A DNA stretch of 46,086 bases, from contig MEDY01000053.1 of the NCBI GenBank assembly GCA_001724265.1, positions 62,001-108,086 of the forward strand, in the 5' to 3' direction. Below the pieces are notes generated by a model. The model was not told the origin of the DNA. It saw nothing but the letters and a program-made list of their open reading frames with translations, and made no database searches. This document shows positions 312-21,569 of this stretch, in pieces. The first letter of the stretch is position 1; each line of letters starts with the position of its first letter. The stretch is from Rhizaria sp. SCN 62-66 (Eukaryota). A program made the translations under genes and the position numbers.

Positions 312-3300
312 ATGCGCCCCGGCGCGTCCTCGCAGCAGCCGGGCCAGCGCCGCCCCTCCGCGTCCTCCGCGGCGGCGGCGGCGGCGTACAGCAGCGGTGG
401 CGGCGGCGGCGGCGGCGGCGCTGGAGGCGGCGGCGGCGGCGCGGGGCAGATCCCCGGCGGCATGCCGTCGCCGACCTCGGCGATGATTGGCCCCGCAATG
501 TCGCCGTCGCCGCGGTACGGCACGCACACTGGCTCCACTCCAGCCTCCTCTGCCTCTGTACCTGCCTCAGCCTCGTCCTCAGTCTCTGCGTCTGCGTCCG
601 GGTCCGGCTCTGGGTCGATCCAGGTGCCGGTGTCGGTGCCCGCCGGCTACAGCAGCCGCAGCAGCCGGCCGCAGCCGCGTAGCGTGCTCTCCTCGGCCCG
701 CGGCTCGCACAGCAACTCGGCCGCGGCCACGGCGCCCGCCGGCAACTACACTTACACCGCGACCGCTTACACTGCGCCCGTCAGCAGCGCCGGCGCTGGC
801 GTGGCCGCCAGCGCTGCGGCGCAGAGCAGTCAGAACCACAACCGCGGCAGCAGCCGCGGCGCGTTCAGGTTCCCGGACCCGCTGTCGCCGCGGTCGGGGT
901 CGGGGGCCGTGCCAGCCTCGAGCAGCAGCGGCAGCGGCGGCATTGGTGGCAGCGGCAACAGCGGGGCGACGAGCGGCTCCGGCCAACTCTCGAGCGCCAC
1001 CGCCACCGCCGCTGCCGCTGCTGCTGCTGGGACGGGTCGTGACGCCGGTGACGAAGACATGGGCAGCCTGTTCCTGAGAGCAGACGACCTGCCCCTGTAC
1101 CCCGCCCTCAACACCACCGCGAACCTGACCAACTCCAGCAGCGGCAGCACTGCGAGCCGCCCCAATGCCAGCGCCAACGCCAGTGCGAGCTACGGCGCCG
1201 CGCGCGCGAGCGCCGCCCGCGGTTCGCTCGCCTCCCGCTCCGGCAGCGCCACCGCGGCCGCCGCGGCAAACGCAAGCGGTGCTCTGGGCGGCTTGGCGTG
1301 GGAGTCCGACACGTCCCCGTCGACGTCGCGGTCGCGCCCGCGGTCGCGCCCCGACCAGCCGGGCGGCTTCGGCGGCGGCGGCGGCGGCGGCTCCGGCGCG
1401 GCCGGGTTGGGGGGCGACGCCAGGAGCAGGCGCGAGGCAGCGCCGCCGCCGCGGATGCTGCCGCCCGCGCAACGCCGCGCCGTTGCGCAGTACCAGCAGC
1501 AACAGCCGTATCAGCCGAGGCAGGCATCTGGCGGCGCCAAGAGCCGCGGCGGCACCGCGGGCGACTTCGATGAGTACGCGCACTTGGCCGAGGGCCTGTC
1601 GTCCTCGTCGGCGTCGTCGTCCGCGCCGTCCTCTGCCGCCGCCTCGCCGCGCCGCGCGCAGGGCCAAGCGGGCGCCGCGGGCCGCGGGTATGCGCCGACG
1701 CTGAACACTGGCGCGCAGCAGCGCAACAGCAACAGCTACATGTACGGCAGCAACAACCCTGGCGGCAGCAACAGGCCTCGTGGCTCGATATCGAGCGCAA
1801 ACGGCGCTAGCAGCGTGAATGCAGCCAACAGTGCCGGGTTTGGCTCGATTTACATTCAAAACCAGAACCAAGCTCTGAACCAGGGCTCCGACGGCACTAG
1901 TCGCCCCAGCGGCAACGCCGCCAGCATGTCCCAGGGCCCCCGCGGCAGTTTCACCGGCGGTGCGAGCGCGAATGTGGGCGCCGGCGTCCACGCGAGCGGC
2001 GTCATGTACGACCCGGGCTACGGCGGCGGCGGCGGCTTCGGCGCTGACTATGGTGACGACGGGGGCGTGTTCGACAGCGGGCTCTTCTTCAACGAGAGAG
2101 ACACCGTCGCGGCCGCTGCTTCGACTCCCTCTTCCGCTACAGCAGCGACGCGGCAGCGCACGCAATCGCACCAACAGCAGCAACAGCAACAGGTGCAGCA
2201 GCAACAACAACAGATGCAACAGCAGCAACAGCAGCAGGGCCAGAGGCGCAGTCTCGGCGCCCGGCCCCAGCCTCTGACCATCGCCAACTCCAGCTCGGGC
2301 CCCGGCCCCGCCTCGGCCTCGCTGACCAGCCCGCTGCTGCTGCCGACGCCCACGCCGGCCGCCAGCAGCCTTGGCTACGGACCGGGCGTGGCTGCGCCAG
2401 GCACCGCCTCGCCCGCCACCGCCACCGCCACCGCGACTGCGGGCGGCGCGACCGGCGTGCCATTGACGCCGCCCACGCCGCCGCTGGCTCCCGGCTCCGC
2501 GGGCTCTGGCTCTGGCTCTGGCGCAGCGGTAGGCGGCGCTGCCAGCGGGGCTGCACACGCCGGTCAGCGCCTCTCCCCGTCCCAGGGCCACGCTCTCGCT
2601 CTGGCCCGCGCGCGCGCTCTAGCCCGGGAGCGCGCGCTAGCGCAGCAGCCTCCCGTGCCAGTGCCGGTCACCGCTTCAGCCGCCTCGGCCGCCGTGGCCG
2701 CCGCGGCCGCTGCAGCCGCCGGCGCCGTCGGGCCCGGCACAACCGCGGTGTCGTCGCTGGCTGAGCTCGAGGCTGTGTCCGCGGCCGCGCTTGCCGCGAA
2801 CGCGTTCAGGACGCCGGTGCGCCGCACGCCGACCCACGCTGCCGCCGCCGTGCCGGTGCTCCAGGGGTCCGCCGCGACGCCCGCCAGCGTTGGCGGCGTT
2901 GGCGGCGTCGGCGGCGTCGGCGCGATCGCCCCGCTGTCAAGCACTGGCACCGGTATGGGCGGAATGAGCGTCGGCACGGGCTTCGCGTTTGGCGGCGCGC
3001 CTGTGGGAGTGCCGGTGCAAGCAGCCTACTCGCCGCTGTCGTACAACCACTCGGTCTCCACCGCCAGCGGCTTCGGCGCCGGCGCTGGCGCTGGCAATGG
3101 CACGCCGTCGTTGTCCGCGTCCTCGCTGTCGCAGTCGCTTTCGCTGTCTATCGTTGGCTCCAGCTCCGCATCGGCCTCGGCGTCGACGCTAGGCCAAACC
3201 GGCAGCGGCAGTGGCGGCCTGGTTGGCAGCAGTCTGTTGCCGTCGCCGCCGTCGCCGCTTGTCATCACAACGCCCCACGCCTCGGTCACCACTGCACCAA

Positions 3301-21300: not shown

Positions 21301-21569
21301 GGCCGCTGCTTGCCGAGGACCACGAGCGCTGCCAACGGCTTGCCGACCTGTACCGCGTGCCCGTGTCGGCCGTGCGCGCCGCGTTCGAGGCCGCGCTCCA
21401 GCGCAAGCAGGAGGAGGCCGGCAATGCGGACATTCTGCGCAGCATCGGGCTTTTCGCCGTGCCGGGCAGCGCCAACGCGAGCGCCGCGGACTCGGCGGGC
21501 GTCGCTGCGACCGACAGCACGGTGGGCAGCGCCAGCGCCGCCGGCGGTGTTGTTGCTCCGCTTGTCTAA
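312..21569 (+). CDS. Giant dual protein kinase (2 PH-like domains + STE20/MST-like kinase + MAP2K/STE7-like kinase), ~7085 codons, with one in-frame TAG at 12369-12371
   Basis: ORFs 312..12371 and 12531..21569 share a frame. Only TAG 12369-12371 separates them, and the codons right after it read [38 protein letters not shown], the missing subdomain XI of kinase 1. An in-frame TAA at 258-260 bounds the ATG at 312; the frame ends at TAA 21567-21569. No AT-rich intron-like segment lies inside. Confidence 0.85.
2172..2237 (+). repeat. CAG/CAA trinucleotide tract encoding interrupted polyQ
   Basis: Translates to QQQQQQQVQQQQQQMQQQQQQQ. Confidence 0.9.
8259..8660 (+). other. PH-like domain 1 (PLC/Num1-type pattern) in the giant kinase
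   Basis: Globular island within low-complexity sequence: EQVWAILQCGRVFTRLK...RRVFLCRSEPHDALLLFK...RAIPCGELIDVQRG...CITVSC...VLYLQADSVKTCSLWCFLLLLLK, ending in the typical L-x-L-x-A....W helix. Pattern recognition only. Confidence 0.55.
9138..10412 (+). other. Split PH-like domain 2 with a ~300-aa low-complexity insertion
   Basis: N-part FERLLVAGQYVAHY...ILFLRLDPSLESIVFRHD...SSIPVADIVSLLP...YPVTLRLRSG (9138-~9410). C-part TLDFHLAFNDYPTSLLWYTALRWLR (10338-10412) carries the PH terminal Trp helix. Confidence 0.45.
11337..12485 (+). other. Kinase domain 1, STE20/MST(Hippo)-like, spanning the in-frame TAG
   Basis: VAVK (K codon 11553), EMSVLRYCRHPNITVFFG, HRDIKAANVML (11853), DFG (11916), GSPLWMSPE and DIWALG lie before the TAG; [25 protein letters not shown] lies after it (invariant Arg codon 12447). 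Confidence 0.85.
20190..20951 (+). other. Kinase domain 2, MAP kinase kinase (STE7)-like
   Basis: IGRGQHGRV, AVKRI, RKQLLKEL, SPCVVPLLGAFF, SEYMDLGDL, HRDIKPDNIL, KISDFG, activation loop T-RSLTT-S (S/T-x5-S/T), GTMSYLSPERL, YSYPADVWAMG, QDPTQRPSAQELLRHDYF. These are STE7 signatures. Confidence 0.85.

Follow-up and report, generated by a model that had tools for sequence, protein, structure and literature searches.

A conserved family fusing a STE20-like and a MEK-like kinase, and a giant protist gene of this family with an in-frame TAG

The stretch of DNA analysed here, which we call the window (46,086 nucleotides, nt; positions 62,001 to 108,086 of contig MEDY01000053.1, assembly GCA_001724265.1, Rhizaria sp. 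SCN 62-66), carries a giant gene in which two kinase domains, K1 of the STE20 type and K2 of the MAP2K (mitogen-activated protein kinase kinase) type, lie in one frame behind two PH-like regions and ahead of a helical tail (Table 1). From the ATG at 312 to the TAA at 21567-21569 this frame comprises 7086 codons with a single internal stop, a TAG within K1, whereas stops number 84, 97, 53, 77 and 174 in the remaining five frames over these positions. Given these counts, both halves flanking the TAG (4019 and 3065 codons) are far beyond chance length even at high GC, and the claim of an earlier note on this DNA that the two kinases share one reading frame holds. The GC content at third codon positions is 0.73-0.94 in all 600-nt intervals of the frame from 612 to 21012 and 0.39 right after the stop, an AT-rich region starting only downstream of 21569. 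More generally, the coding parts of the window are 70-79% GC and the gaps sharply AT-rich; the boundaries between its large open reading frames (ORFs) are marked by 150-nt GC minima of 0.27-0.44, and no such dip occurs around 12369. Apart from the TAG, the 21-kb frame requires no intron. The closest in-frame stop upstream of the first ATG is about 17 codons away. A Pfam search of the two halves returned Pkinase as the only domain type, with one match per half (E<=0.01). The gene is poor in introns, and its host is an uncultured protist of very high GC content.

Table 1. Features of the giant gene in the window (all coordinates refer to the window; L002 is an orthologue from another contig).
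Feature	Coordinates	Strand	Remarks
Whole giant-gene frame	312..21569	+	7085 codons plus terminal TAA (21567-21569); one internal TAG
N-terminal low-complexity region	312..8249	+	~2650 residues; 68% A/S/T/G/P; no detectable similarity to L002; true start uncertain
PH1-like domain	8250..8714	+	36% identity to PH1 of L002; AlphaFold/Foldseek of the alignment
PH2-like domain, split (tentative)	9126..10421	+	N-terminal half ~9126-9416, ~300-residue low-complexity insert, C-terminal helix 10335-10421
K1, STE20/GCK (MST)-like kinase domain, with three lineage-specific inserts	11334..12491	+	Pfam, PDB matches, family invariants
In-frame TAG	12369..12371	+	in ~45-residue insert, alphaG-alphaH loop of K1
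Linker	12492..20189	+	2566 residues; low complexity, 58% A/S/T/G/P; open frame; not conserved with L002
K2, MAP2K (MEK)-like kinase domain	20190..20957	+	loop T-x5-S-FLGT..YLSPER; Pfam, PDB matches, family profile, invariants
C-terminal tail	20958..21566	+	two conserved helical motifs (~21075-21119, ~21378-21410), family-wide

K1, the span of which includes the glycine-rich loop (G-loop), is expanded by inserts in its beta2-beta3, activation and alphaG-alphaH loops. It matches Pkinase at 100.2 bits (residues 3739-3950 of ORF1, the half upstream of the TAG), the match being ended by the TAG at profile position 193 of 263; the last 31 profile residues (233-263) lie after the TAG in the same frame. 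With an X at the TAG, the best solved-structure match of the window's K1 was MST1/2 (104.8 bits, in three stretches, the last one past the TAG), and all 60 of its best PDB matches were STE20 kinases, as were the 60 best for the K1 of L002 (157.2 bits to MST1) and the 60 best for a profile of eight family K1 domains (266.2 bits to MST1). Subdomain VIII carries the motif G-[ST]-P-L-W-M-x-P-E, and the G-loop, Lys, Glu, H-x-D, DFG, APE and the Arg of subdomain XI are invariant in the K1 alignment. In the window the coding sequence of K1 is interrupted by the TAG; of the 49 residues invariant in the family, the domain nevertheless has 43, among them all 6 that lie beyond the stop. A word-indexed search with residues 3640-4019 of ORF1 against proteins of 2210-7034 residues gave no match.

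K2 matches Pkinase at 201.1 bits (residues 2610-2860 of ORF2, the downstream half; profile positions 4-263 of 263). Its PDB scores were led by MEK1 (143.2 bits), followed by MEK2, dSOR1, MKK5 (123.6) and MST2 (122.3). With a family profile of nine sequences, the first 41 distinct PDB sequences were all MAP2Ks (MEK1 238.4, MKK5 206.9 bits), the first STE20 kinase standing at 203.9 bits, about 35 bits under the top MAP2K. The hallmark of MAP2Ks is a pair of Ser/Thr sites (S/T-x3-5-S/T) before F-[VL]-G-T...Y-[ML]-[SA]-P-E-R, the plant-type loop being S/T-x5-S/T. The window's K2 has the catalytic Lys, HRD and DFG and a loop that reads DFGLLKELEG-T-RSLTT-S-FLGTMSYLSPERL, in which the activation segment T-RSLTT-S-FLGTMSYLSPER places S/T-x5-S/T just before FLGT..YLSPER. 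Across the family the pattern is T-x5-[T/S/A]-F-L-G-T..Y-L-S-P-E-R: among 9 aligned sequences, 6 have the first Thr and 8 have T, S or A at the second site, which is Ala in L002 and in one Paulinella paralogue, while Gymnochlora deviates further. The G-loop, Lys, Glu, HRD, DFG, APE or SPE and the Arg of subdomain XI are invariant in the K2 alignment, and of the 45 positions at which the 8 other aligned K2 domains do not vary, the window's K2 agrees at 44. Among proteins of similar length, a word-indexed search with K2 gave 16 matches, none with a name indicating function or kinase class; ten single-kinase K2-like matches, taken by name, come from taxa including Amorphochlora, Bigelowiella and Ancyromonas, with no function named.

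Judged by best matches, profiles and motifs, K1 is STE20/GCK-like and K2 is MAP2K-like; as our tree (see below) has no labelled reference kinases, it is on these that the placement in STE20 and STE7 rests. From the conserved residues, both kinase domains look catalytically competent across the family. The assignments agree with the earlier note, which had seen a STE20/MST-like kinase followed by a STE7/MAP2K-like one with Lys, HRD, DFG and an S/T-x5-S/T loop, and which would have been contradicted by classification into other families; the profile searches gave STE20 for K1 and MAP2K for K2. Its label of MAP4K for K1 is the name of a tier, and a STE20-type kinase that acted on a MAP2K directly would be taking the part of a MAP3K.

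The same domain order is found in orthologues. L002, found in a scan of metagenome contigs, comes from a 217-kb contig with 52% GC and consists of a single uninterrupted ORF of at least 3750 codons (5'-open in the fetched part), encoding a PH1-like domain, a split PH2-like domain, K1 (residues 722-1040), a linker of about 2300 residues, K2 (residues 3339-3594) and a 156-residue tail. As this frame is open at 52% GC, it is no compositional accident, which removes the chief worry over the GC-driven frames of the window. K2 and tail of L002 are 44% identical to the window over 432 aligned positions; the alignable parts are PH1, the C-terminal helix of PH2, K1, K2 and the tail, the N-terminal 2650 residues and the linker not being alignable. 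L003, from another assembly, has 2778 open codons and ends at the corresponding stop. A misassembly between K1 and K2 was considered and rejected, the domain order and spacing being matched by L002 and L003, although among the DNA contigs listed for the window no single one bridges all of 11.3-21.6 kb. A word-indexed search with residues 1-1040 of L002 against proteins of 2062-6563 residues returned four generic kinase matches only. The closest relative, L001 (a 2.5-kb contig; K2 at 72% identity), has its kinase (frame 1 to ~1100) and its tail (ORF 1101-2057) in different frames; this change of frame in the region 1-2057 reflects either a frameshift or, the contig being short, a fault of assembly.

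A wider family emerged from a protein library, in which K2 and tail found 1753 proteins at E<=1e-30. Among the best 150 representatives, examined by blastp/phmmer, we analysed 17 in which a K2-type domain follows one of the K1 type; P0006 and P0015, cut at the N-terminus, and the ambiguous P0038 and P0055 were set aside. The linkers of the 17 vary from 277 to 2566 residues, and the K2-bearing members are 1000-7000 residues long. In all 10 relatives scanned with Pfam, Pkinase was matched in two or three stretches, three where an insert splits K1. We built a quick maximum-likelihood tree of 57 rows, namely the 34 domains of the 17 members plus 23 hand-picked rows (18 with a single kinase, 5 with several) and no named outgroups. 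The 17 K1 domains form one clade (SH-aLRT, the Shimodaira-Hasegawa-like approximate likelihood ratio test, 97), and a clade of 27 (SH-aLRT 96) unites the 17 K2 domains with 10 "single" rows, many of which we would guess to be pieces of fusion genes. K1 and K2 divide into the same subgroups (the window with L002; P0014 with P0016; P0018, P0020 and P0021 with P0072 and P0089; P0009 with P0010; P0039 with P0050), and this congruence argues for one old fusion followed by co-divergence. A source name is attached to 6 of the 17 members, all of them Cercozoa: Paulinella micropora (three), Gymnochlora sp. CCMP2014, Lotharella globosa (via a cluster mate) and Norrisiella sphaerica. The Gymnochlora, Lotharella and Norrisiella records bear transcript or transcriptome-project identifiers, with both kinases on one assembled sequence. 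From the gene family, the host of the window is probably a cercozoan too. The fusion of a STE20-type with a MEK-type kinase is, on this comparison of sequences, a genuine conserved architecture: proteins with the two kinases in this order, the search for which had been recommended, exist as 17 dual-kinase representatives, with L002 in one ORF, and the fusion is thus not unique to the protein of about 7000 residues, which belongs to a family of at least 17 representative clusters. The same search brought up P0005, P0007, P0008, P0022 and P0081, in which between 4 and 15 kinase stretches are matched one after another and of which one is 6172 residues long; among the protists sampled, such arrays seem to be common.

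Outside the kinases the family is more variable. No Pfam PH match was obtained in the window at E<=0.01, the best one under relaxed settings being PH_FT_N (E=0.3); PH1 of L002 matches PH at E=0.13, and upstream of K1 in 5 of the 10 scanned relatives PH scored 17.5-24.3 bits, under the cut-off of 25.1. An AlphaFold model of the L002 PH1, made from a two-sequence alignment with that of the window (predicted template modelling score 0.62; mean predicted local distance difference test, pLDDT, 58.7), shows a run of beta-strands followed by a long C-terminal helix; the window's PH1 alone (8190-8798) gave an unusable single-sequence model (mean pLDDT 36.4). In a Foldseek search against PDB, the listed matches of the two-sequence model were, where titles could be named, PH domains or PH-containing proteins (PLC-gamma, MRCK, Sec3, ELMO1, Trio, ROCK, PLC-delta, BTK; best E=1.9e-4), and an Atlas feature search gave PH_12 at 0.92, with the ten best family-bearing matches in the same family or clan. 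Basic residues (TRLKP..ARRG..RR) were noticed by eye in the beta1-beta2 stretch of PH1. The C-terminal helix of PH2, just before K1, is conserved as "LLW..AL..L"; it is 50% identical to that of L002 over 30 residues and is also a phmmer match. The model of the L002 orthologue thus supports, with moderate confidence, a PH fold for PH1, and the helix, together with the sub-threshold Pfam matches in relatives, weakly suggests that PH2 is PH-like. The two PH-like domains announced previously therefore fare unequally: PH1 is backed by the orthologue's fold, whereas the window has no Pfam PH match and PH2 stays tentative. The disordered linker of about 2570 residues was described correctly, being 2566 residues long and of low complexity (Table 1). 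The helical tail after K2 may serve in docking or autoinhibition.

The TAG is real. DNA contigs of the runs X2 and X3 cover 12226-13836 without difference; the contigs of these two runs are identical to each other and are therefore counted as one data set, and a further run, X1, may be the source of the window. In a poly(A) metatranscriptome from a different study (X7), a contig spanning 12307-12654 is colinear across the TAG, with no gap and one synonymous difference. X7 has no depth at 21644-22300, where DNA runs have depth, a weak hint that its signal is RNA; gene parts for which no X7 contig is listed are no evidence of absence. Elsewhere in the gene, in the low-complexity region before PH1, an X7 contig has 9 extra bases (3 codons, in frame) after 8161, a frame-keeping indel polymorphism. 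At the site of the TAG the frame of L002 stays open and its loop is short, and K1 is continuous in seven other aligned relatives and in the ten scanned ones. Conservation of the stop in orthologues, looked for as a mark of readthrough, is thus lacking in L002 and in the aligned and scanned relatives; constraint downstream of the stop is present. The context is UAG-CGC-GAG, with C as the +4 base, and a hairpin at 12375-12409 (outer stem GAGGC..GCCUC) begins 4 nt after the TAG and is overlapped by a CTAAC-AG (12379-12385). Among runs, 20 variant positions are listed, of which 5 are synonymous (2 of 11 before the TAG, 3 of 9 after); as most variants lie in low-complexity sequence and contig depth is below 5, these counts are uninformative on selection. 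What does speak to it is the integrity of the 6 post-TAG invariants of K1 and of 44 of the 45 in K2, from which the downstream part has been under selection until recently, or still is. We take the TAG to be either leaky, readthrough yielding the full 7085-residue chain, or a recent nonsense lesion, and we make no choice between the two. The suggestion that the UAG acts as an on/off switch finds no support: the TAG lies in a lineage-specific insert, it is absent from L002, K1 is continuous in the relatives and the hairpin is marginal.

On balance, and by a modest measure, we favour the view that these proteins form a conserved family with the order PH-like, split PH-like, K1, variable linker, K2 and helical tail, that the family goes back to a single fusion, that it works as a module in which K1 acts on K2, and that the copy in the window carries a genuine TAG. 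In this module the PH-like domains would bring the protein to a membrane or to a binding partner. K1 would then phosphorylate the T-x5-S/T activation loop of K2, in the same or in a neighbouring chain, and thereby do a MAP3K-like job, for which the TAO kinases offer a precedent; it is by analogy with them that we infer the action of K1 on K2. K2, once phosphorylated, would activate a separate mitogen-activated protein kinase (MAPK), so that the tether would replace a scaffold plus one tier of the cascade.

Several points weigh against this view. Termination at the TAG would leave K1 without helices alphaH and alphaI. To our knowledge, UAG-CGC-GAG matches no readthrough motif; the fold of the 115 nt after the TAG is marginal (z=-1.99, with 5 of 200 shuffles folding as well), and an X7 variant, 12407 C>A, breaks one G-C pair of the hairpin stem. 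The second glycine of the G-loop is Asp in the window's K1, the branch of which measures 1.3, as against 0.41 for L002, and this K1 may be weakened or a pseudokinase. As to K2, the margin of the single L002 sequence is small (MEK1 141.3 versus MST2 134.6 bits). The docking site by which MAP2Ks bind their MAPK is an N-terminal basic cluster followed by hydrophobic-x-hydrophobic, and by-eye inspection of the 70 residues before K2 in the 17 members revealed no shared basic-hydrophobic motif of this kind. The X7 contigs listed are 346-499 nt long, in a type of library that can contain DNA, and continuity of RNA from K1 to K2 reaches beyond contigs of this size. Finally, the probable cercozoan origin of the window is drawn from its membership in the gene family.

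One rival explanation is a recent nonsense lesion fixed in sludge populations, with translation ending at codon 4020, K1 dead for want of alphaH and alphaI, and the 9.2 kb downstream, K2 included, untranslated and not yet decayed. We hold this to be a serious possibility, though not a probable one. L002, with its short loop, lacks the TAG, K1 is continuous in the aligned and scanned relatives, the context of the TAG is not known to be that of a readthrough motif, and the Asp and long branch of K1 fit such a loss; the 20 variants listed across four runs represent, by a rough estimate, too little divergence to expect secondary stops, and the organism may rely on paralogues, of which Paulinella has 3. 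A dead gene sits less well with the 3065 open codons after the TAG, where the other frames would give at least 23 stops, with the intact invariants on both sides of the linker, with the presence of the same TAG in contigs of runs from at least 3 studies filed between 2016 and 2025, and with the depth of the poly(A) library, similarly low on either side of the TAG. One may also imagine that the gene has split into a PH-PH-K1 gene, truncated, and a separate linker-K2-tail gene expressed from its own start (the first ATG is at about 12555) through an internal transcription start or trans-splicing. The downstream part does exist as a public gene call of 3004 residues (P0151), K2 and tail are intact, a CTAAC-AG follows right after the TAG, and spliced-leader trans-splicing has been reported in the rhizarian Paulinella (PMC6053224). 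Such a fission is nonetheless improbable, because the parts are not separated by an AT-rich dip like those at other ORF boundaries, the X7 contig runs colinear across the TAG, the post-TAG residues of K1 are conserved, which would be pointless in an untranslated leader, and no loose, begin or end point lies near 12370-12560 among the entries listed, a minority of all.

Two further explanations would do away with the stop altogether. The TAG could lie inside a short, spliced, in-frame intron: L002 has only a short loop here, and in-frame GT...AG pairs exist, such as 12312-12371 (GTAACG...TAG, 60 nt) and 12368-12385 (GTAGCG..CTAACAG, 18 nt), among many GT/GC...AG candidates around the TAG that offer no basis for choice. 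As the poly(A)-library contig is colinear and unspliced over 12307-12654 and GC does not dip at the TAG, we reject the intron as main explanation and consider it very unlikely; moreover, only one intron-like site was seen in the window, and it opens with GTATGT in AT-rich sequence, and the rest of the 21-kb frame does without introns. Nor do we believe, save as the slenderest of chances, that UAG is a sense codon in this organism. There is a precedent in the rhizarian exLh, for which UAG is reported as Leu, with 384 in-frame UAGs in 71 genes (PMC5304391), and the window has no verified TAG terminator, as its sole TAG-ending ORF (Kri1-like) first enters an intron-like AT-rich stretch and the other ORFs stop at TAA (one) or TGA (five). 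Against the 384 UAGs of exLh, however, the seven ORFs of the window have a single in-frame TAG in 13,385 codons, in which TTA occurs 7, AAA 21 and CTA 24 times, and no tRNA gene was found in the window.

The module in which K1 activates K2 must also be weighed against the idea that there is no cascade at all, the protein being a tandem STE-group kinase whose two domains act on different substrates or pair allosterically, as in JAK-type pairs, with K2 no activator of a MAPK. Many protist proteins with 2-10 kinase domains came up in the same search, so that kinase fusion is common in those protists; the linker is long and unconserved, no docking motif was seen by eye before K2, and the MEK-over-MST margin of the L002 K2 is small. 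It is harder on this account to see why the T-x5-S/T-FLGT..YLSPER loop, which has the MAP2K pattern, should be kept in most aligned members (with the deviations already mentioned), why the profile should favour MAP2Ks so clearly, why catalytic residues should be kept in both kinases family-wide and why K1 and K2 should have co-diverged since a single fusion. We regard the absence of a cascade as quite possible, though less likely than not, and retain the K1-to-K2 module as our preferred reading. It may be speculated further that Cercozoa possess a single-chain, two-tier module in which a PH-anchored STE20-type kinase activates the MAP2K to which it is covalently joined, with no need for a MAP3K or a scaffold, that the tether has grown from about 280 to about 2570 residues, and that in the sludge lineage output is limited by low-level readthrough of the UAG; this complete scenario we put forward as rather unlikely.

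The earlier note knew of no characterised STE20+STE7 fusion, and a full-text literature search, outside which supplementary domain-architecture tables lay, likewise found neither such a fusion nor an account of this family; the portions covered of kinome accounts of Stentor, of the eukaryotic kinome tree and of Phytophthora, supplements again lying outside, describe none. Conserved and, as far as that search reached, new, the architecture combines kinase families that are already known. Textbooks present MAPK signalling as the prime example of distinct kinase tiers kept together by scaffolds, and what their separation contributes has been studied mostly through engineered fusions. If our reading is true, free-living eukaryotes have skipped a tier and replaced the scaffold by a covalent tether, and the series of homologues with tethers of 277-2566 residues would allow the effect of tether length on activation in cis versus in trans to be tested. 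The system is testable because cultured relatives (Paulinella, chlorarachniophytes) carry family members. For Rhizaria, whose cell biology has received little study, the family also provides a lineage marker and a component of signalling. The TAG is a separate, smaller puzzle: it shows either a giant gene shortly after its inactivation or readthrough that is tolerated.

Some other features of the window are of note. A glycosyl hydrolase family 1 gene (23200-25641) is a single ORF of 813 residues in which the domain is matched in four Pfam stretches separated by Ala/Ser-rich inserts, its loops having been expanded in the way seen in K1. On the minus strand, a GC-rich island between AT-rich gaps (25990-26560) contains a stop-to-stop ORF of 178 residues (26016-26552) that includes MAADPTLLEAATR and is possibly a small unannotated gene or exon. 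The Kri1-like ORF (31657-34581) shows, at 34497/34498, CAG/GTATGT followed by AT-rich sequence (34480-34602), like the start of a canonical intron, so that further exons of this gene probably lie between 34.6 and 36.0 kb. Two giant minus-strand ORFs, 36078-41153 (1691 residues) and 41318-46084 (1588 residues, open at the window end), have 74-79% GC and no Pfam match at E<=0.01; long opposite-strand ORFs overlap them, and at such GC a bare ORF means little.

Among known kinases, K1 most resembles MST1/MST2 (STK4/STK3) and other STE20 kinases of the GCK type, its best solved-structure matches; unlike these, it follows PH-like domains instead of preceding a SARAH or CNH domain and is fused to a second kinase, and in the window it differs from MST1/2 also by its three large inserts, the Asp at the second G-loop glycine and the TAG. 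K2 resembles MEK1, MEK2 and MKK5, likewise its best solved-structure matches, in having T-x5-S/T directly before F-L-G-T-x-x-Y-L-S-P-E-R, but lies at the C-terminal end of a protein of 1000-7000 residues, is followed by a family-specific helical tail and has no N-terminal docking motif that we could see by eye. RSK and MSK, in which an AGC and a CAMK domain, both active, are joined by a short linker and one phosphorylates the other in cis, also have two kinase domains in one chain; here the two are STE-group domains of different tiers, separated by 277-2566 residues. TAO kinases (TAOK1-3), which act on MKK3/6, provide the case of a STE20-type kinase acting directly on a MAP2K. They are described as members of the MAP3K family that regulate p38 signalling (PMC7589832). 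TAO kinases and their MAP2K substrates are, however, separate proteins, and no TAO kinase is among the best 60 matches of the K1 profile, where the MST type is best. MAPK modules are assembled by scaffolds such as Ste5, KSR and Pbs2, and engineered fusions of tiers exist. A study of domain rearrangement (PMC4260825) was compared alongside them. Scaffolded modules and engineered fusions share with the present family the holding together of consecutive kinases, which fixes the wiring of the pathway; there the link is non-covalent or a laboratory construct, whereas here it is a natural, conserved and covalent fusion.

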